A program made the translations under genes and the position numbers. Shown here piece after piece: positions 1-43,651 of a DNA stretch of 64,000 bases (positions are counted from its first letter, which is position 1; every line of letters starts with the position of its first letter). A model generated the notes under the pieces. That model searched no databases, had not been told where the DNA came from, and saw only the letters and a program-made list of their open reading frames with translations. Origin of the DNA: Macrostomum lignano (taxonomy: Eukaryota); contig NIVC01001832.1 of the NCBI GenBank assembly GCA_002269645.1, positions 1 to 64,000 on the forward strand, written 5' to 3'.

Positions 1-2
1 AA

Positions 3-456
3 CTGCCGAAGTTCGTTATGCTGGTCTTCGTGAACCACCGAGCCTTCAATGGCCATCACCATTCCAGCCCCTTCGAGTTCCAGAGCTTCAACCTCAGCCA
101 GCTAGCACTAAAGAAAGGTGGTGAAGCCATGTGCCACGCTGCATTTGCACCTTGAGAATAATTCATTCGTGAGAGAGTACTTGCACTACCTGAAAAGCTG
201 TCAGTCAGCCAGCCCTACCAACTCGGTTCCGTGGGTCCCCTACCAGTTGTTCTCCAACGGCAACACAGCTTTCGCATTCGATCTCACGCCTGAGGGAGCG
301 GCCCTGTGGTACGGACAGAAGGAGGGCAATTTGCGGCTGGAGATTCGCTTCCGACAGGCCCTGGAGGAGCCTGTATCTCTGATTGTTATGTGCCTGTATG
401 ACTCACTGATTGAGGTCACGAAGCACAGGGAGATTCTGCTAGATTTTCCATCCTAG
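3..456 (+). CDS. Polinton major capsid protein (hexon-like), C-terminal part, frameshift at ~152
   Basis: Frame 3 reads LPKFVMLVFVNHRAFNG..SPFEFQSFNLSQLAL and stops at TGA 153. Frame 1 continues ENNSFVREY..FAFDLTP..GNLRLEIRFRQAL..YDSLIEV..REILLDF. Both match the conserved C-terminal motifs of Polinton MCPs. Confidence 0.85.
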
Positions 457-479
457 GAGTACGCTGGCGCAACGCTAAT

Positions 480-940
480 ATGGATGCTTTTCAACTGCTT
501 AAACTGCTAAAAGCTTTTTGCCACAAAATAACTGTTTAATTATTGTCTTGAATTCAATAAATAAAACATCTTATGCTTTGAACTTTATTCAGCGAGCAAC
601 TCTCAAAAGAAATTTATCTCGATGTAAGTTTATTTTCTTTCTGCTTCAGTACAGCTCATCCTTCGGTCACTGGGTGGTTTGTTATACTGATAAGGAGAAT
701 TCCATAGAACTCTTTAACTCTCTGGGCTGGGACTCCAGCACTTTAGAGATCATTCACAGAGCACTGAAATCCTTTTGGTATTCTCCATTCTACTTACGTA
801 GCAATGTGAATCGAATTCAGAGCTGCAACTCTGCTAAATGCGGTTTGTTCTGTCTCTTGTTTGCCTATCAAAAGTTTCGTTTCAAGCGCTCGTTTGAGTG
901 GGTTCTGCGGCACCTCCATGCAAATCAGCAGAGCACTTGA
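480..940 (+). CDS. Adenain-like capsid maturation cysteine protease, frameshift at ~517
   Basis: Motifs GHWVV, LFNSLG and IQS..S..CGLFC. ATG at 480 (MDAFQLLKLLKAF) joins the 518 ORF if one T is added to the T5 run. Confidence 0.85.
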
Positions 941-1028
941 ATGAAAGAATTCTGCAAAGGTTTGAGAGTTGCTTAAGAAAAAGAAATTTAATTAGATTTT
1001 AAAAATCAAGAATTTAGCTCAACAGGCA

Positions 1029-1681
1029 ATGGAAACACGTGAGCGGATAAACTGTTATGATGTGCGCCTGCGACAGGGAAGCTGCATGATTGTCAGCGGG
1101 CCTACAAATGCAGGAAAGACAACCTTCGTGAAACATCTGATACAATACAAGGATGTCATGTTTGATGTGAAGCCTGGGAGAGTTCTGTGGTACTACGGGA
1201 TTTCACAAGCAGCACACTCTGAGCTCAGCAGTCTCGGCGTGCACCTGCAGCAGGGATTTCCCAGCAGTATCGAGACCGCACTGAGACCCAATGACCTGGT
1301 TGTATTTGATGACCTGATTGAAGAAACTTCCAATTCTGCTGCAATGCGAAATGTTTTCACTGGAATTGCCCATCATTTGCCCTGCTTTCTGGTTATGCTC
1401 ACCCAAAATGTATTTTTTAAAGGGAAGGAGTTGCGAACAATGAGTCTGAATGCGATGTACTTTGTGATCATGAAGAACCCCAGAGACCAGCTGCAGATTG
1501 CAGCGCTGGGCAGGCAGTGCTTTGCTGAGAAGCCCGGCTTTCTGCTGTCAGTGTTCAAGCACGTGACATCGCACGCAGGGGAGCCTACCTGCTCCTGGAT
1601 TTTCACCCTTCCACCCCTGATGAGCTGCGCGTCCGGGCTCGAATCCTGCCCAATCAGCGACCCCACCTTGTTTACACTTAA
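1029..1681 (+). CDS. A32/FtsK-family genome packaging ATPase, frameshift at ~1580
   Basis: Walker A GPTNAGKT, Walker B LVVFDDL, then HH..LVMLTQN and RTMSLNAMYF..KNPRD. The conserved C-terminus GAYLLLDFHPSTPDELRVRARILP is in frame 2 after the G4 run at 1578-1581, with stop at 1679-1681. Confidence 0.9.
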
Positions 1682-1733
1682 GAATAACAGCCGAGATTTC
1701 GCCATTTGTTCTATATTCTGCAACACAATGATA

Positions 1734-2043
1734 ATGGAAACCTTTGACTCACATGAAAGTTTGTTTATGTTCTCGCGTCACCGAAATATTCCATCAGCTT
1801 TAAACGTCTGTTGATCAGAGCGGGTCCAAAAGCCGTACGTGAATTTCTCATTGAGGCCTGCTACAACCTATTGCAAAACACTCTGTCGTTCTCACTCACT
1901 CAAAAGGCAGCGCTGGTGAAGCAAAAGCAAATAATCCGCAAAATTTCTACACATAGAAGAACTGCGATCTGCTAAATACGGGTTTTATCAAAATTCTCTA
2001 CATTCTAATAAAGCTAGTGAAGAAAAAGAAGCAAAATGAATAA
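1734..2043 (+). CDS. Small basic Polinton-type ORF of unknown function (two apparent frameshifts); missed by the ORF track
   Basis: METFDSHE / KFVYVLASPKYSISFKRLLIRAGPKAVREFLIEACYNLLQNTLSFSLTQKAALVKQKQIIRKIS / LLNTGFIKILYILIKL. Resembles the small basic ORF commonly found after the Polinton ATPase. Its stop overlaps the next ATG. Confidence 0.6.
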
Positions 2044-2725
2044 GTTCTCAGAAATGGTTCTGATCCCCAAGTCAGAGTACGACATGCTCACACAGAATTT
2101 GAAGCCAGTCGAGTCTGAACTCGACACTGCTGTGAGATATGCGCAGAGGAAATGCAATGATATTTTGCTTGCCGAGGATTGCCCAGACGATGTGAAAGCT
2201 GCCATGTACCATGATGCGATGAAGAGTTTGCTGGCCAAGCGCAAGCGGACTGGAAAGGATGGTGCGGTACCTGCGAGTGATGCAAAGATGCTGAAAACAG
2301 ATATTGCACCAGCAGCTGGGGGAAAAGATCACCCAATCCGTGCCGCAGAAGTTTAAAGCGAGAGCCCGCAGTCTATGGGCCATCCTATCTGGCAATCCTC
2401 TCTGATTCAGGTGTCCGAAAATGGCGAGGCGCAAATTTCTGGGAAGACAATACCCTCCTCAAACATCCTGGATTTGTTTCACAGTGCGGTGAGGGATTCG
2501 AAATGTGCCAACGAGCCGGTAGGCTGGAGTGAGTTTGTCTCATTGCTTCAAGACAAAAAGCTTAACATCCCAGCTTCGGCTATAGGAAAGTCAGTAAGGC
2601 AGCTAATTTCTAAACCGGCTGTTTCTCCAGAGGCCACCCCTGCACATCATACAGTTAAGGGATTCGGGAGTGGAGAGCCTGGCTACACTGAGCAGGAAAA
2701 AAAACTATTTAAGAAGGGGAACTGA
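2036..2725 (+). CDS. Conserved Polinton-type ORF of unknown function (two compensating frameshifts, ~2295 and ~2400)
   Basis: MVLIPKSEY..DDVKAAMY / SVPQKFKARARSLW / GKTIPSSNILDL..PVGWSEF..L..IPASAIG. The ORF-track pieces 2036-2356 and 2375-2725 are bridged by a frame-3 segment. Confidence 0.65.
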
Positions 2726-2765
2726 GTCGGCTTCCCGACATCTTGCGTCTTGAAACCATCCGATC

Positions 2766-3278
2766 ATGAACTATATTGACTTCCAAGGCTTCCCACGCGA
2801 GAGATCGAGCAGAGATTTCGTTGTGAAGGAGCTGGCCATTGCCCAAGTCCGGGCTGGCAGTTACCATATCACTCATCACGTGTACGCCTCTCCGTTCTCA
2901 TGGAGAGAATCTCACCTGAGATGCAAGTGCATTACAGAAAGCTCTCAAAGAATTTGCATCATTTCAAGTGGACAGATGGATCTCGACCGTACATGCATTT
3001 GGCAAATGACATTCTAAACATTGCTTACGGTCCCACCTGGACAAGCGGGGTGAAGAAGTCCATCTTTCTGACTGAGCTGCTTGGCAGACAGGTGTACAAC
3101 CTAGAGGATCTGGGATCACCTTTGATTCAAGCATCTGATACTGGTTGCGCAGTGAAAAATGTATTACTGTACTACAACTGGCTGAAACCGAAGTTCTGTA
3201 TCAACTTAAGAAGCGAGGTGTGCCCGCACCACTCAAAAGCTCGCAAAGACAGTACCACAGGCAGAAAGGACTCTCTAA
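2766..3278 (+). CDS. Putative DEDD-exonuclease-fold (RNase H-like) protein, frameshift at ~2902; 3' end uncertain
   Basis: YIDFQGF..FVVKELAIA..H..SPFSW / HHFKWTDG..SGVKKSIFL..VYNLEDLG..GCAVKNV. The DxQG..E..G..CAxxN pattern resembles DEDDh-type folds. Fold assignment is an inference. Confidence 0.5.
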
Positions 3279-3842
3279 ATGAGTACACCTGCGACAGCCC
3301 TGCGAGTGACCAATCTGGTCGGCGGCGTGGATCTGAGACTTGCTGGAGGCAGGGGTGCCCAATTGCCTCTGCGGGAACTGGCTCTCAGCATGGCTCATGT
3401 CATCTATCGTCCCGTCTGGCCCCGAGTGCTTATCAAGAGGATGCGGAATCCCAGAGTGACTCTATTGCTCTATCCGACTGGACAACTGAGTATCTGTGGC
3501 GCCCGGAGCTACTCGGCCTCAGTCAGGGCCGCTCGTCGCTTCGTGGCTATGCTGCATCGCAGAGTGCCTGCTCAACTGCTGCCTCATCAAGCTGTGCATG
3601 TGCGGATTAAAACTATTACTGCTCATGGGAAGATTGACTTGTGCAGAGCACTTCCCCTCGCTAATCTTGTAAACACTTTACCAAGTGCTCAATATGAGCC
3701 AGAATCATTTTCTGCTTTGATCTGCAAACTAAGCTTCTGCAAATGCCTGCTTTTTCACAATGGCTCATTTGTTCTCAGTGGTGCAAAAACAATGAGCATG
3801 CTAATTTCCGACTTTTCCTTGCTTGTCCGTTTTCTGTGCTAA
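3279..3842 (+). CDS. Divergent TATA-box-binding protein (TBP)-like factor encoded by the Polinton
   Basis: Intact 187-aa ORF with both TBP repeats: VTNLV..L.LRELAL...Y.P...V.IKRMRNPRVTLLLYPTGQLSICGARS..S..AARRF, and YEPESFSALI.K...LLFHNGSFVLSGAK. Followed by AATAAA at ~3868. Confidence 0.85.
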   Translation: MSTPATALRVTNLVGGVDLRLAGGRGAQLPLRELALSMAHVIYRPVWPRVLIKRMRNPRVTLLLYPTGQLSICGARSYSASVRAARRFVAMLHRRVPAQLLPHQAVHVRIKTITAHGKIDLCRALPLANLVNTLPSAQYEPESFSALICKLSFCKCLLFHNGSFVLSGAKTMSMLISDFSLLVRFLC

Positions 3843-4563
3843 TAATAACCATATGTTTCAACAATTAAATAAAAAGACGACAGCTGAACAAAAATATAAT
3901 AATTTGCATGCATATACCACGTATTAAGATGCGTGCATTTTAATCAATATACCTGAAAATCAGACTTCGATCGACTTTTTCTTTATTTTCAAAACTGAAA
4001 TCGCAATATTAGTTTGAGTATAGAAAATTTAATCAGACCACCACCAACTCAAGAAAAAAAAGCACACCCATCACTCAGATTATGCACTGCTAAGACAAAA
4101 ACGAACAAGAACTAGCAGAAATGAAAAAGGAAGCAAATATTTTTCAGATAATCATTGGATAATGGTTACAAAAAAATATGAGTAGCAAAGCTAGCAAAGA
4201 TAAAAAAGGACAGTAACTCAGTTCATTCAATTGTGCAAAAATTCAAGGATAATAAAAAAGGGGAAAGCCAGACCAATATGACGCAAATTATTCCAACATG
4301 GCTTTCACAAGTTCGTATTGAAATAAATCTGGAACAACTCAACTCGAAAATGTTACGCTCAGTTAGTTGCTTAGAGACTACAAATATGTAACTAACTGAA
4401 TTGGCTCTATTCGTTCCAGCATTGTCATTATCATCATCATCCATCATTATCATCATCATCCATCATCATCATTCAGATTAATTAAACCACAGAAACAATT
4501 CATGGAGTACATAAGTAAAAGTCAATAAATTTCAACGCCAAGGTTACACAGATGTGCAAAGCA

Positions 4564-7500
4564 TCACTCTAAGCAGTCCGCTGTCCTTTTCGGACTACCC
4601 CTGATTAACAGCTGAAAGTGGCCGAACGGAAGACTTGAGTTCGAGCCAGTCCACGCTCGCTTGTCCTCCCAGATACTGAGAGCGAGCTTACGTTGCTCAA
4701 TGGTGAAAACGCGATGTTTCTCACTTCCAATTCGACGAACAGTGAGCCACAGCTTTGAAGCCCCCTTGAAAATCTTGACATAGTCGTCGTGGGAGACTTC
4801 ATTCTTCAGCACGCTTCGCTGGATGCCTTTTGCTTTTGCTTTGCATGCCGCCGAGCTTTCAGCGAGGAAAGAATAGAGCTTGGGCCTTAGCAGCACCCAC
4901 TCAATCTGTTGCAGTCCACCAGCTTCATCTTTAATGCAGCCTAGCTTGGCCTTTAGCCGATTCGAGAAGAGAGGATGATTAGTGAAAAAATTGGAGGTGT
5001 CCAAGAGGCCTTCGGCATGCAGGATTGGCAGCACTTCTCTCTGCAAACTAAGGTTCTCTAAGCTCAAAAACAACGAGTCTGTATCGCCACCGCAAACTCG
5101 AACTCTTGCTCCATCACGGAATTCTAGCATGGGTTTTATTTTGTCATAGTAAAGTCGATACATGATGATCTTGGAGCGATCTAGAACACACTGCCCCATG
5201 AAGATTGGGCGATCAAGAGTTACTTCGTGCTTTTGAAGCTCAAAGATGCTGAGTGACGGTGTAATGATTGTGAATGATGCGACATTTGGTTGAGGAGAAA
5301 CAGTCTTGGCTTTTTTCTTGTCAGTACACACTCTGATGTCCCGCCGCTTGCGCACGTTCTCCATTGTTTTGCCAAACAGAAGAGTTATTTTTCAGTTTAT
5401 AGAAATCCTTCTCGAAATCATTTTTCGCCATAGAGCGCTTCTCGCTATTCATCTTAATGTAGTCCGCGAAGACAGGTTCTTGCCTGAATTCGATCATCCT
5501 GTGGAGCCCATGCAACTTCATTCCGTGCGATAGATAGAATCGGAGAGCAGACGAGTGCAGTACATAGGAAAACTTGTTGTGGCATGTGAGCATTAATTTT
5601 TGTACTCCACGGTAGCGCGCAACGGTAGGATTCTCAGTCGTGTTCGCGTCGGGCTGCTGCTGCTGATGATGATGAGAATGATCATTGTCATGTTGAAGCA
5701 GTACCCATAATTCTCGCATGTACTGCGGAAATTCTTCGAAATTCGGACACCTTTTCTCTGGGGCGAATGGAAGATCCTCCGTTGCCGTGTGGATTTCGGC
5801 TGGGTAGAGCAAATCCGCTTCGACAAGGTAGCCGATTGGAGCGTCATCATCCAGGGAAAGAAAGCGGCACTCGGACCAGGAGCACAGCTCCTCTTGACTG
5901 AGCCAGCGAAAGCCGCCAACAGGTAGGGGCATTGTGAGCGCATGACCATAAAGGTTATTAGCATCAACAGCCAGTAAACTCCTACCTGCTGGTTCATTAT
6001 CATCATCACTACTTTCGCTCTGGACATGATGTACATTGACAAAAGACATTCCACCCCGAATTCCTTTCTCAAACATTTTATACATCTCGAGGTCAGTTAG
6101 CAGTTCGATCTTGACTTGAGAAGACTTTAGTGCAGAAGCGAATGATAAGCCTGGAGTTGACACAAAATGCACCGGATCTAGCTTGTCTTCCTGCAAACTC
6201 AGCCTTCGAAACCCTTCAAAGATATCTGCTAGTTGCCTGATGTCCAGCTCCAAGTAGCAGAGAATGTAATCGCGCAATGTTGTAGATTCGAATTCAGTCC
6301 AGGCCTTCTGCGCATGCCGATACTCCGCCTCGGTACAGTGGCTGTTGGTGAGTCGGTTAAAAAAGCTTTCTACTTTTGGTAGTTGGCGATCATCAAGCAC
6401 ATTTAAATTCGAGAGATAATCATACGGGAAAACTCCCTTACTAAACAGTACATCGCTTGAGAGATTTGGATACTTTGATCGCATCGCATTAGTGATGGGA
6501 CAGTTGTCCTCCGGCAAGTTCTTAATAAGTTGAGAGAGACTGCTGTGTAGGAATTGCAGTGAGTCGATGAATTGTAGCGTGAAAAACAGGGGCTTTTTTA
6601 CGCCATCTTTCTCATACTCATCAATCTGGAACTCGACCCTCATGGAGAGGTACGACTCAGCAGTTTGGGGGATGACGCTCACCCTCCAACCAGTCATGTC
6701 ACCCAGCGCAGTTGAGAAAATCAAATGCAGGTCATATCCGCGAAGATTGTGGAAAACTATTGGCAAAAATCGCCGTTTCAGCCGAGCAAGCTTGTTACAC
6801 GAAGCGCAGGCAGCACCCTTGTATTCACCGCTGAGGTGGTCGTGATCCCAGTGCTTGTCAGAAGATGAAATGAACACTGCATTGCATAAATAGCACTGTG
6901 TGGCATCTTGAAAGCTGCGCCTGTTGTCATCACTGTTTCTGTCAGCAATCTGATGACTAAACTCGGTATTCCAACCATAAACTTCACGAGCAAGACGTTC
7001 GAGTGAGGCCAAAAACTGTTTCACGACAGAATTCGGATTGGGTCCGCTGCAGAGGAAAACATCCTCACTCGGCCTCAGAATTTTGCTGCTCATACCCTCT
7101 CTTGGAATAACAATGTAGCCAGCAGCTACAGGTACATGCTCAGTTAACTTGGTGACAGTAACTTCTCTTTCAGGCTTCACTGGTTCACGTGGGGTGTTCA
7201 GAGCTTCAAAATCTGCGTAGACAACAAATGGGGGACTGATTGTCTTTTCCCAAGCCATGAACTGCATTGTGTTGCTACTTGCATCAGGCATGCGCTCCAT
7301 GATGGCTGGTTTCAGTTGAGGATTGCAGCTGTCTCGATGCTGCTCCAACTCTTCCTGGAATCGAAACGGAGAAATGCACTTCTCACACCATTTGCGATTC
7401 CTCAGACCTTTTTTGCTGTTCAGGAGCCGGTCCAGGTTCGAAACTGCACACCAGTGTCCAGTCCCACAATTCTCATCACCACCATCATCATCATCAGCAT

Positions 7501-8323
7501 CATCGGAGCTGGAGTTGCGAAGCAAGAGTAGAGGAATAACCTTGCGAGAGGCACAAATCCCAGGAAGAGGCTGGCGAATGACATAGGCCTCATCATCTTC
7601 CCAGCTAAAAACTGTGAAACAGATTTCGGAATTCTTTTCCTCTATAACGTCTAAATCGGAAATTGCGACTGGTAGTGCGATGCCGCTCAGATCGATTTCA
7701 TCCAACCATCTGCTGTAAGTTGTTAGTCGATGGCAGGACTTCATCACACCTGGATCTCTGATGTGCAGGTAAGCGAGACAGGCAAACAGAAAGCAATTGT
7801 TTCCATCGCTCGGTGGGTTGATTATGGCCTTCTTAACGGCCAGCTGATTGGGCAAAGAAAAATTCGCGCATCGTCCACGATAGTAGCGAATGCGATCAGT
7901 GAGGGCAGAGCACAGATCAAAATAGTTGATTTGCTCAACTATCCAACCGCTCCCATTTGAATTGTAGGCATCAATCTTGCGTTCCAGCTCAGAAAACTGC
8001 TGCAACCACCACAATTCAAAATCTCTTAGATCAGAGAGAAGCTCAAGACCGCATGCGATCCACTTATCTTCTGCATTGATTACCGCAGCTTCCTTGATTC
8101 TCACCATTCTGATGTTGAACTTGAGCTGCGCTCGAATAGAATTATTCTCGGATGAATCGAATCTCATCTCAACAGCCTGTAGCACTGCAAACTTCGTTGA
8201 TGATAAAAAATGAAATGGCTCGAGATCTCTTGATGCTGGAGTGAAGCGTCTGACCTGCAGCGTGTCATCATGCGCACTAGCGTGAATAGCCGAGCTGAAT
8301 TGAATGCCTGCATGAATTAGCAT
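4564..8323 (-). CDS. Protein-primed family B DNA polymerase (pPolB), frameshift at ~5378
   Basis: Exo I YADFEA, Exo II HNLRGYD, KGVFPYDY, RGGMS, motif A DANNLYG, motif B KLKNNS/LFGKTMEN split across the two ORFs, motif C DTDSLF, then RPKLYS and KAKGI. Also an EndoVII-like insert DHDHLSGEYKGAACASCN and an N-terminal C2H2-like CEKC..H. Confidence 0.93.
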
Positions 8324-8391
8324 GTTGTTGGGTGTACGCGTTTCACTCGGCAGTTAAAATTTATAAATCATAATCCTAATTCCACCTCATT

Positions 8392-9370
8392 ATGGTGCGG
8401 GAATCGGTTAATCAGGAATCAGTGAATCAGGAATCAGTGAATCGGGAATCGGCGAATCAGGAATCGGTGAATCAGGAATCGGCGAATCGGGAATCGGTGA
8501 ATCGGGAATCGGCGAATCGGGAATCGGTGAATCGGGAATCGGCGAATCGGGAATCGGTGAATCGGGAATCGGCGAATCGGGAATCGGTGAATCGGGAATC
8601 GGCGAATCGGGAATCGGTGAATCGGGAATCGGCGAATCGGGAATCGGTGAATCGGGAATCGGCGAATCAGGAATCGGTGAATCGGTAATCAGTGAATCAG
8701 GAATCGGGAATCAGTGAATCGGGAATCGGTGAATCGGGAATCGGTGAATCGGGAATCGGTGAATCGGGAATCGGTGAATCGGGAATCGGCGAATCAGGAA
8801 TCGGTGAATCGGTAATCAGTGAATCAGGAATCGGGAATCGGTGAATCAGGAATCGGTGAATCAGGAATCGGCGAATCGGGAATCGGTGAATCGGGAATCG
8901 GCGAATCGGGAATCGGTGAATCGGGAATCGGCGAATCGGGAATCGGTGAATCGGGAATCGGCGAATCGGGAATCAGTGAATCGGGAATCGGCGAATCGGG
9001 AATCGGTGAATCGGGAATCGGCGAATCGGGAATCGGTGAATCGGGAATCGGCGAATCGGGAATCGGTGAATCGGGAATCGGCGAATCAGGAATCGGTGAA
9101 TCGGTAATCAGTGAATCAGGAATCGGGAATCAGTGAATCGGGAATCGGGAATCGGGAATCGGTGAATCGGCGAATCGGGAATCGGTGAATCGGGAATCGG
9201 TGAATCGGTGAATCGAGAATCAGTGAATCGGTGAATCGAGAATCAGTGAATCGGTGAATCGGCGAATCGGGAATCGGTGAATCGGCGATTCGGGAATCGG
9301 TGAATCGGGAATCAGTGAATCGGTGAATCGGTGAATCGGGAATCGGTGAATCGGCGAATCGGGAATCGGG
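8392..9370. repeat. 15-bp tandem array (GGAATCGGTGAATCG / GGAATCGGCGAATCG) inside the Polinton
   Basis: Directly visible. The two variants alternate, giving a 30-bp higher-order unit. Confidence 0.95.
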
Positions 9371-10076: not shown

Positions 10077-10988
10077 TTAGAATTGAGAATTGCTCAGGCG
10101 AATACGGAAAGCCCCTCCCAAGTCAATCCAATATTCACCCGTAACACTGTTGGGCAGAACCAGCTGGATGCAGAGAGGTGCTGGCTGCTGCACTTCATTA
10201 GCGGCCGCAGGCTGAACCTCAGTCGGTGGCGGCGGTGGTGGAGGCGCAGGGCCTGAGTCCATATCGCGAATCAGGTCGGACAGGCTGACTTCGACCGCAG
10301 GCTGAACCTCAGTCGGTGGCGGCGGTGGTGGAGGCGCAGGGCCTGAGTCCATATCGCGAATCACGTCGGACAGGCTGACTTCTGCCACCATCCTGGCACG
10401 CTCCATATTTTTTCCGGGAACAGGGATTGCACGCCGCTGCTGCTGCTGTTGCATTTCTTGCTGCTCCTGTGCTTCAGGCTCACCATCGAGGTTCTCGAAG
10501 AAAGCGGTGTCCAGCTCATTCAGCTCGAAGTCAGGGGTGCCACCTCCATCAGCAGCATCAAGCAGGGGAGCTCCCACATCACCGTCGAGTAGAGCAGCAG
10601 AAGCAGCAGCAGGCTGGGCGTTGGGCTGGTCACCAGTGTTCGTTGATCGGCCGCATAAGCTCGTGATAACTTGACTCAAAGTGCTCACCGGCTCTCGAAT
10701 GCGTTCTGCCGCCCTGTTGCGTTCCTCTTGACGTGCAACTTCCAGAGCAGTAATGCGTGCCTGCTCGCGGTCCTCAGCAGAGCTCCAGTTAACAGTCGAA
10801 TGATTTTTATGCCTTTTGATTTGGCCTCTAACGGTGAAGAGCTCAACGGACTGGCATTCATGGCATAGTAGCCATCGGGTGACACTGCAGCCTTCATTCG
10901 CTACATGGTGCTTTAGTCCACCGAGCATACTAATATTGCAGGTGACACACACCTCATGAACGTAGGATGGGCACCGAGAATGGCTCAT
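10077..10988 (-). CDS. Polinton terminal ORF: Cys/His-rich N-terminus with LxCxE, coiled coil, acidic/Gln/Pro-rich region; possible early regulator
   Basis: 303-aa intact ORF with CxxC..HH and LLCHECQ..H..H, the acidic segment FELNELDTAFFENLD, and two 30-aa repeats (90-bp duplication, 10205-10292 and 10295-10382). Confidence 0.65.
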   Translation of the reverse strand: MSHSRCPSYVHEVCVTCNISMLGGLKHHVANEGCSVTRWLLCHECQSVELFTVRGQIKRHKNHSTVNWSSAEDREQARITALEVARQEERNRAAERIREPVSTLSQVITSLCGRSTNTGDQPNAQPAAASAALLDGDVGAPLLDAADGGGTPDFELNELDTAFFENLDGEPEAQEQQEMQQQQQRRAIPVPGKNMERARMVAEVSLSDVIRDMDSGPAPPPPPPPTEVQPAVEVSLSDLIRDMDSGPAPPPPPPPTEVQPAAANEVQQPAPLCIQLVLPNSVTGEYWIDLGGAFRIRLSNSQF

Positions 10989-11570: not shown

Positions 11571-12085
11571 TTTCCCCGCGGCAGAGTCCACCAATCCATT
11601 TACATAGAGCTCTATTCGGCTTTTCATTGAAGATCGAGTAGGAAAATGAAAAGCGTCGAATTTTTCTATTCTATTTTTGTCTACTTCTTAAAGGATAAAA
11701 ACATGTCTATCTAAAATCTAGAAACTAGTATTCTTTTTGAAATGTTTGAAATGTTATTTCAAATTCGTCCTTTCGTTTCTATAGAAATACGACAAAGAAT
11801 CGAGAAAATTTCTCGAACCGAATTCCAGAATCGGATCACGGTTCTGGAACCGAATATGAAGACGGAACAGACAATATGAAAAGCTTCGAACCGATTCTGG
11901 TTCTGGAATCGGTAATATGAAAAGCCCGTATATTTCGCTCTCCGACCCCCCCCCATGGAAATTCCGTGGCTTTCCCTGCGGCAGAGTCCACCAATGCATT
12001 TACATAGGCGCTATGTTTACACACTACAGGCCCGTGGTTTTCCCACGGAAATTCCTGCGGCAGAGTCCACATTTCCCCTACTACT
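11571..12085. repeat. Putative Polinton terminal inverted repeat region with subterminal direct repeats
   Basis: GCGGCAGAGTCCAC occurs at ~11578, ~11978 and ~12057; the first two extend as TTTCCCYGCGGCAGAGTCCACCAATSCATTTACATAG. Ends in CTACTACT. The partner TIR is not in the window. Confidence 0.6.
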
Positions 12086-12650
12086 TCTCTCCTCTCTCTC
12101 CTCTCCTCTCCTCTCTCCTCTCCTCTCCTCTCTCCTCTCCTCTCCTCTCCTCTCCTCTCCTCTCTCCTCTCTCCTCTCATCTCTGGCTTTCTCTCTCATC
12201 TCTCATCTCTCATTCCGCCTCTCTCATATCTCCTATCTCCCCCTCACCTCTCTGTCCTCCTCTCTCCTGTCCTCTCTCCTCTCCTCTCCTCTCCTCTCTT
12301 CTCTCCTCTCCTCTCTTCTCTCTCTCCTCTCCTGTCCTCTCTCCTCTCCTCTCCTCTCCTCTCTTCTCTTCTCTCCTCTCCTCTCTCCTCTCCTCTCCTC
12401 TCCTCTCTCCTCTCTCCTCTCATCTCTGGCTTTCTCTCTCATCTCTCATCTCTCATTCCGCCTCTCTCCTATCTCCTCTCTCCCCCTCACCTCTCTGCCC
12501 TCCTCTCTCCTCTCTCCCCTCTCCTCTCCCTCTACTCTCCTCTCTCCCCTTCTCTCCCCTCTCTCCCCTCTCCTCTCTGCCCTCCTCTCTCCTCTCTCCC
12601 CTTCTCTCCCCTCTCTCCCCTCTCCTCTCTCCCCTCCACTCTCCTCTCTC
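12086..12650. repeat. CT-rich low-complexity tract with an internal ~240-bp duplication
   Basis: (CTCTC)n-like sequence; the segment CATCTCTGGCTTTCTCTCTCATC..CATTCCGCC recurs at ~12178 and ~12421. Confidence 0.9.
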
Positions 12651-12715
12651 TGGCCCGCAGTATTGCGTCAGATTATCTATCTGGCCCTTTAGTTAAAATA
12701 GTTTGCCAACCTCTG
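12651..12715 (+). mobile_element. 3' end of a hAT-like non-autonomous DNA transposon (MITE)
   Basis: TGGCCCGCAG..CTGGCCC..AGTTTGCCAACCTCTG resembles the GGCCCGC subterminal motifs and GTTTGCCGACCCCTG TIR of hAT/Charlie-like elements. The other TIR is not seen. Confidence 0.45.

Positions 12716-13496: not shown

Positions 13497-43651
<30,155 letters not shown>

Follow-up and report, generated by a model that had tools for sequence, protein, structure and literature searches.

A Polinton in the genome of Macrostomum lignano carries a TATA-binding protein (TBP) gene of its own. The encoded protein has the TBP fold and is under selection; such genes recur across Polinton families, and a conserved box precedes most genes of the virion cluster. 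We consider it probable (about 0.6) that the protein is a virus-type late transcription factor acting with host TFIIB and RNA polymerase II (Pol II), like the TBP mimics of herpesviruses.

The element and its genes

The analysed stretch of 64,000 nucleotides (the window) is the start of contig C1832. The + strand gene order is the partial major capsid protein (MCP) gene, protease, ATPase, a 230-aa ORF, a MAEL/DEDD-like ORF and TBP. The following features were assigned:

1..456, + strand: 3' part of the major capsid protein gene, frameshifted; the contig begins inside the gene (tblastn with the ORF of another copy)
480..990, + strand: C5 (adenain-type) maturation protease with a frameshift close to its end (PF00770 in another copy, E 4e-5)
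1029..1678, + strand: A32/FtsK-type packaging ATPase, frameshifted (tblastn; relatives match PF04665)
2036..2725, + strand: conserved ORF of about 230 aa, split here, with no family match (ORF conservation among copies)
2766..3244, + strand: MAEL/DEDD-like ORF, frameshifted here (constant upstream neighbour of TBP in families A and B)
3279..3842, + strand: element-encoded TBP, 187 aa, intact (ORF, Pfam, PDB, AlphaFold2, Foldseek)
4564..8323, - strand: protein-primed DNA polymerase B (pPolB), in two frames here (PF03175, E 1.5e-15)
10077..10988, - strand: conserved Cys/His-rich ORF of 300-380 aa (canonical TATA upstream in the copy examined)
11951..12085, - strand: right terminal inverted repeat of about 135 bp with the terminus AGTAGT, followed by a CT-rich repeat (repeat alignment)

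The capsid label in the window follows from position and similarity among Polinton copies, with no Pfam match, and so does the penton label. Maelstrom as the identity of the MAEL/DEDD-like ORF is an Atlas lead only (0.88). The left part of the element is seen in other copies, where it contains a PC4-like gene, an rve-chromo integrase and a penton-like gene; the window contig starts downstream of the integrase. Polintons (Mavericks) end in inverted repeats with terminal AGT repeats and generate a 6-bp target duplication. The duplication is exact in the copy on C2389 and matches at five of six positions in that on C1545. With pPolB, the integrase (in other copies), ATPase, C5 protease, capsid genes, terminal repeats with AGTAGT and a target duplication, the element is a Polinton. 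The window also contains a short tandem repeat inside the element (8392-8688), a CT-rich repeat at the insertion site (12086-12700), a short ORF resembling, by eye, an exon of a polycystin/REJ-type host gene (14371-14616) and long purine-skewed repeats (15000-18000).

Most neighbours of TBP are frameshifted in the window copy, and TBP itself is an uninterrupted ORF. As an earlier note on this DNA had described, it ends the + strand virion-gene cluster, being the last gene after MCP, protease and ATPase and facing pPolB. The two TBP repeats recognised in that note are both matched by PF00352 (E 1.6e-21, 76.3 bits against a cut-off of 22.9), and all 35 distinct PDB sequence matches are TBP chains or TBP fusions (best E 1.7e-16). 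The AlphaFold2 model built from a 13-row alignment has the saddle of TBP formed by the two repeats (pLDDT 91.8, pTM 0.82), and its top Foldseek match is human TBP (1cdw, E 1.5e-13, TM 0.80); the profile and structure searches proposed in the note thus recover the TBP fold. Structural matches were also found in BFVD, the best named one being from Heterosigma akashiwo virus (E 6e-11).

In family A, the family of the window copy, 25 distinct intact alleles give a median TBP dN/dS of 0.205 (range 0.095-0.469) over the 246 of 300 pairs with dS of 0.15-1.5, these pairs being non-independent. Comparable values for its neighbours are 0.078 for the ATPase, 0.065 for the capsid gene and 0.174 for the MAEL-like ORF. 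The family A gene is under purifying selection, so the dN/dS comparison suggested earlier gives a non-neutral result. A chance ORF is rejected. In family B the copies are too close, only one of 78 pairs reaching a dS of at least 0.15, with a ratio of 0.74. The dS of the two halves of the gene is unequal in some family A copies, e.g. L021 (0.05 versus 1.02) and L052, which suggests recombination between subfamilies within the gene.

Distribution among copies and Polinton families

A search of the 764-Mb genome with the window protein, in which 150 of 234 candidates were scored, yielded at least 152 matches. Of the 150 listed, about 90 by eye count are near full length without stops, and the subfamilies are 72-100% identical. 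The host TBP occurs at three places (C70, C713 and C1301), as does a TRF2-like gene (C350, C3090 and C3513); with host genes each present three times, the assembly may overstate copy numbers about threefold.

The MAEL-like ORF lies directly upstream of TBP at 27 of the 29 family A places fetched, the other two being deleted copies. TBP is therefore a gene of the element, as had been proposed. The gene order is different in family B. This second family (about 40 matches) has a TBP about 35% and a capsid protein 38-40% identical to those of family A; it preserves the order of MAEL-like ORF and TBP at all eight places.

More divergent TBP-like ORFs of about 160-185 aa were found in three of five elements fetched from families D and E, whose capsids are at about 30% identity or less. 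Pfam supports two of them as TBP (L228, E 2e-7; L232, E 6e-5), and the third (L230) has no match. In these three elements we also observed a dUTPase gene in family D and a Fic-domain gene in family E. A Polinton lacking TBP, as a control, was not found in the genome among the five D and E elements, as the two stretches other than the three with a TBP-like ORF end inside pPolB.

With an alignment of short TBPs, 61 loci were recovered from metagenomes. Polinton genes lie beside TBP in 18 of them, 17 recognised by tblastn (one weakly) and the 18th by ORF inspection; one contig (L117) has pPolB, ATPase, integrase, TBP and capsid genes together. The remaining 43 are mostly archaeal in appearance. 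The gene is not a one-off capture, since it recurs in four Polinton families of this genome and among the metagenome Polintons. Scans of IMG/VR with three Polinton-type TBP alignments gave no match, and a scan with a host-like TBP alignment gave 24 large-virus contigs. Database proteins from other data sets match family A at 49-70% and family B at 57% (P0010, P0020, P0003-P0005). Five loci (L125, L132, L134, L135 and L143) have a distinct TBP clade beside protease-like and primase-like ORFs; they are mirusvirus-like by eye, without a family match. Two Polinton-like contigs (L168 and L169) carry a further divergent TBP that retains N159, and show no TAAGAA enrichment.

Origin of the element TBP

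In a 47-row tree, obtained from a 104-row set by removing 57 rows, the TBPs of families A and B group together (90/57), weakly joined by L168 and L169 (81/71), and the marine Polinton TBPs form a separate group (98/95). The Polinton proteins, on long branches, are outside the clade of cellular eukaryotic TBPs that includes the host TBP and TRF2 (91/86). Families D and E are in neither tree, and the 104-row tree was built in quick mode. Ten giant-virus-like contigs group with cellular TBP, apart from the Polinton proteins. The phylogeny proposed in the earlier note thus places the element TBPs outside the host clade, but an AU test leaves a single clade of element TBPs and host TBP unrejected (p 0.279).

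A host paralogue would be a low-copy chromosomal gene grouping with animal TBP; the window TBP is multicopy and element-bound, and its placement is the one just given. The absence of introns and of an N-terminal extension, which had been held to argue against a host TRF gene, fails as an argument and was dropped, because the host TBP core and the TRF2-like gene are each one open frame and the N-terminus of the host TBP is short.

The AU result and the lack of a usable selection signal in family B would fit a captured host gene without function, kept as a neutral passenger or retrocopy. We regard this as very improbable: with family A dN/dS of about 0.2 at dS of about 0.7, identity of only about 27% to the host TBP, and retention in four families and in metagenome Polintons, the median of 0.205 contradicts neutrality for family A.

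DNA-binding face

Residues were compared in yeast numbering, and those of the host TBP match the ones listed in Table 1 of PMC12529657. The window TBP has retained N69, V71, T112, L114, F190, L205, F207, V213, E186 and E188, and differs by T73G, F116Y, K120Q, V122S, T124C, Q158K, N159T, V161T, P191S, V203K and T215S; an altered DNA face, as read earlier, is thus borne out against the host TBP. The alignment also confirms that the first Asn is kept (N12 in the element protein), that the second is Thr (T112) and that the YEPE stirrup is present. The stirrup, the acidic C-terminal surface for TFIIB, is predicted from the alignment to comprise E140 and E142 of the element TBP, and it is acidic in nearly all rows.

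The earlier statement that all four intercalating Phe positions remain aromatic stands for three of them: F190 and F207 are kept and F116 is Tyr. In the alignment to host TBP, however, Pro48 stands in the F99 column and Trp47 just before it, so that the reading W, Y, F, F needs a one-residue shift. The first intercalating Phe has probably been lost in the window TBP, and in families B, D and E this column lacks an aromatic residue; DNA bending may accordingly be weaker. The family E protein lacks F207 as well. Marine relatives mostly retain the four Phe. Replacement of N159 by Thr or Ser and of V161 by Ser or Thr is common to families A, B, D and E and the marine group.

A poor DNA binder that keeps its TFIIB surface could be a decoy, titrating host TFIIB or TBP regulators and so dampening host transcription or defence. 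The unconserved F99 in families A, B, D and E, the changes at T73, V122, T124, N159, V161 and P191, and the kept stirrup are all compatible with this. Yet the changed DNA-face residues K111, T112, K155, Y65 and C73 are invariant between families A and B, the Phe set is mostly intact in marine relatives, the basic second helix is gone in family B, and the upstream boxes would be left unexplained; we therefore consider a decoy quite unlikely.

A putative promoter box upstream of virion-cluster genes

An eight-nucleotide box, Y-W-TAAGAA, was first spotted by eye in upstream regions and counted afterwards. Ranked by lowest z across A1, A2 and B, TAAGAA comes first among the 6-mers, with 9, 11 and 6 occurrences against 2.3, 2.3 and 1.7 expected; the full box is not among the top ten 7-mers. 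Y-W-TAAGA occurs 5-9 times in sense and 0-2 times in antisense orientation in five stretches (P 0-0.014) and 0-1 times on pPolB, counts to be read in view of the relatedness of these stretches to each other and of Lys/Arg-rich gene ends, which favour AAGAA.

In families A and B the box lies 33-147 nt before seven or eight virion-cluster genes. In family A it is found at -37 to -40 from the integrase (-226 in one copy), -33 to -44 from the penton gene, -147 from a 170-aa ORF, -40 to -56 from the ATPase and -72 to -81 from TBP. Where both families can be compared, the places match: -102 to -108 for the capsid gene in family A versus -105 in family B, -41 to -50 versus -33 for the small ORF, and -44 to -56 versus -51 for the MAEL-like ORF. 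This box at matching places before virion-cluster genes of two families is new here. No box was found upstream of the family B TBP, or within about 200 nt upstream of the protease and the 230-aa ORF. There are also a few intragenic sites, and a few that are closer to the start (-10, -17), these accompanied by a second box or a later start. The 3.9 kb of the window that were counted contain four boxes against 2.1 expected, which is non-significant alone (P 0.17):

972..979, + strand: CTTAAGAA, within the protease gene and 57 nt upstream of the ATPase start (word count, position, codon conservation)
1677..1684, + strand: CTTAAGAA, about 50 nt before the small ORF after the ATPase (word count and position)
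2708..2715, + strand: TTTAAGAA, 58 nt before the MAEL/DEDD-like gene (word count and position)
3205..3212, + strand: CTTAAGAA, within the MAEL/DEDD-like gene and 74 nt upstream of the TBP start (kept in three of three divergent representatives)

Where the box overlaps coding DNA, its codons TTA-AGA are kept in three of four integrase, two of two protease and three of three MAEL-like representatives; in other invariant columns with 4-6-fold codons the codon is kept in only 5%, 37% and 36%, respectively. The PC4-like gene (in families A and B) and the Cys/His gene have a canonical TATA upstream instead in the copies examined.

The 18 metagenome Polinton contigs contain 92 sense and 7 antisense TAAGAR words against 50 expected; four contigs are significant alone, and several are near-duplicates. 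In the other 43 TBP loci, taken as a control, there is no excess (143 sense, 158 antisense, 185 expected). In L110 the motif CATAAGAG precedes the integrase, penton, MCP, zinc-finger ORF and ATPase, and is absent before TBP and PC4; the box of L117 and L122 is CGTAAGAA, again absent before TBP. Within the host genome, families D and E have boxes of their own along with TBPs of their own. The box is TATAAGCA in family D and TATAAATA in family E, distances in families C, D and E having been read off printed upstream stretches. The four families thus use three different boxes, and that of family E lacks TAAG.

If the boxes are read as TATA variants, residue 122 of TBP, which we take to lie under base pair 6 of the TATA box, may pair with box position 6: it is polar in families A, B and D and in the marine group, where this position is G, and Ile in family E, where it is A. 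The comparison is suggestive only, and an archaeal TBP (L152) is likewise polar (Asn) at 122. In passages of PMC12529657, P191 is described as favouring T at the first box position.

The boxes could be real late or element promoters read by the host TBP or TRF2, by another host factor, or by the polymerase of a helper DNA virus, with the element TBP being accessory elsewhere. The TAAG core is that of the baculovirus late motif. According to parts of 10.1101/2022.07.28.501842, helper-virus promoter motifs are used by a Polinton-like virus and by virophages. Families D and E have nearly canonical TATA boxes that host TBP could read, and PDB titles list wild-type TBP crystallised on the G(-26), T(-30) and C(-25) TATA variants. 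A single host or helper factor, however, predicts something other than three boxes over four families, one of them without TAAG, and is disfavoured on this ground; most boxes in families A and B are, moreover, at least 33 nt before the start codon, a TATA-like spacing. We rate another reader as unlikely, though it is the strongest competitor of the late-factor reading.

Still less probable, in our estimate, is a role in bending or organising element DNA for replication, integration or packaging, or in serving Pol III, instead of Pol II starts. TBP adjoins pPolB in family A and the integrase and PC4-like gene in marine Polintons, and in passages of PMC7221094 the stirrup serves BRF too. But the boxes are strand-specific, with one per gene before coding starts, and none was seen in the aligned terminal repeats.

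Relation to known systems

The closest known parallel is KSHV ORF24, one of the TBP mimics of beta- and gammaherpesviruses. In the passages of PMC12529657 that describe it, this viral protein has a TBP fold with a polar DNA face (V122, T124 and V161 replaced) and directs host Pol II to TATTWAA before late virion genes. ORF24 is also described there as large and multidomain, binding Pol II directly, lacking the acidic TFIIB stirrup and needing five other viral factors. The Polinton protein is alike in fold, polar DNA face and a TATA variant before virion genes; in contrast to ORF24/UL87-type proteins it is a bare 187-aa core with the stirrup, without the N-terminal Pol II-binding and C-terminal domains, and is not a member of that group.

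Nucleocytoviruses and mirusviruses likewise encode two-lobed TBPs, e.g. B263R of African swine fever virus (passages of PMC5825884 and PMC7221094). Most carriers encode their own TFIIB, and the stirrup is only about 40% conserved, according to parts of PMC7221094. Unlike such a TBP-TFIIB pair, the Polinton TBP keeps the stirrup, and no element TFIIB was found. With cellular TBP, TRF2 and insect TRF1 the element protein shares the fold, N69, V71, L114, F190, L205, F207, V213 and the E186/E188 stirrup; it differs in the low identity to host TBP, the residue changes on the DNA face and its multicopy location inside an element.

The gene set shared with Polintons, Mavericks and adintoviruses as given in passages of PMC8502044 consists of pPolB, rve-chromo integrase, C5 protease, A32-type ATPase and capsid-type genes, along with AGTAGT repeats and the 6-bp duplication. 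Adintoviruses are divided into alpha and beta classes by PolB class and an OTU domain on PolB. The earlier note did not count TBP among the standard Polinton genes and named an existing description of TBP-bearing Polintons as grounds for refutation. Such a description exists in part, as Starrett et al. 2021 (PMC8502044 and its preprint) label a TBP-like gene in the Fig. 5 legend of a virus map; in the passages of that text, the figure itself being outside it, TBP is neither reported as a recurrent gene nor paired with a promoter box. In the full-text literature searched, subscription papers and Repbase being beyond its scope, TBP was found with Polintons only in Starrett et al., and a term search gave no TBP or promoter passage in PMC10748475, PMC12220804 and PMC5803895.

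Proposed mechanism

To our knowledge, how Polintons time their virion genes is an open question, as they encode capsids and no RNA polymerase. We found no paper on this timing in the full-text literature. A selected TBP together with a box before virion genes provides a concrete mechanism for it and speaks for a viral life cycle under regulation.

In the late-factor reading, genes with a canonical TATA (PC4-like and the Cys/His ORF) would be read first by host TFIID. The element TBP would then bind the variant box via its polar DNA face, and its acidic stirrup would recruit host TFIIB and through it host Pol II, which would thereby reach the genes for integrase, penton, capsid and ATPase as well as the accessory genes. 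A box also precedes the family A TBP gene itself, so a positive feedback may be expected. The 16-17 kb elements showed neither a TFIIB nor an RNA polymerase gene, and no scanned element ORF matched TFIIB. A genome search with PF00382 gave 15 matches on seven contigs; none was traced to an element, and the two loci inspected (L235 and L237) resemble exons of host TFIIB and BRF. The host TFIIB core is split over exons. Four runs presumed to be RNA gave contigs over most of 1-8400, including intergenic parts; these may derive from DNA or from other copies and count neither for nor against expression.

Should the mechanism hold, no smaller case of the herpesvirus-type strategy would be known. The four natural TBP/box pairs in one laboratory animal provide a test set for changing TBP specificity, and the box would be a marker of late genes in unannotated elements. 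A wider and more tentative proposal, which we judge somewhat less probable than even, is that TBP and a family-specific TATA variant form an overlooked core module of many animal Polintons, each family having its own late-promoter code, read by a minimal TBP of its own with host TFIIB and Pol II, so that several families could coexist in one nucleus free of cross-talk, with, in family A, a positive-feedback switch between a silent integrated state and the expression of virion genes.

Families A and B and marine Polintons also contain a second gene of basal-transcription type, PC4 (Sub1)-like by Pfam (E 8e-5 to 1.5e-17), which in many cases adjoins TBP (L051:2635-3360, L102:1297-1731, L110:1321-1803 and L109:1034-1582).
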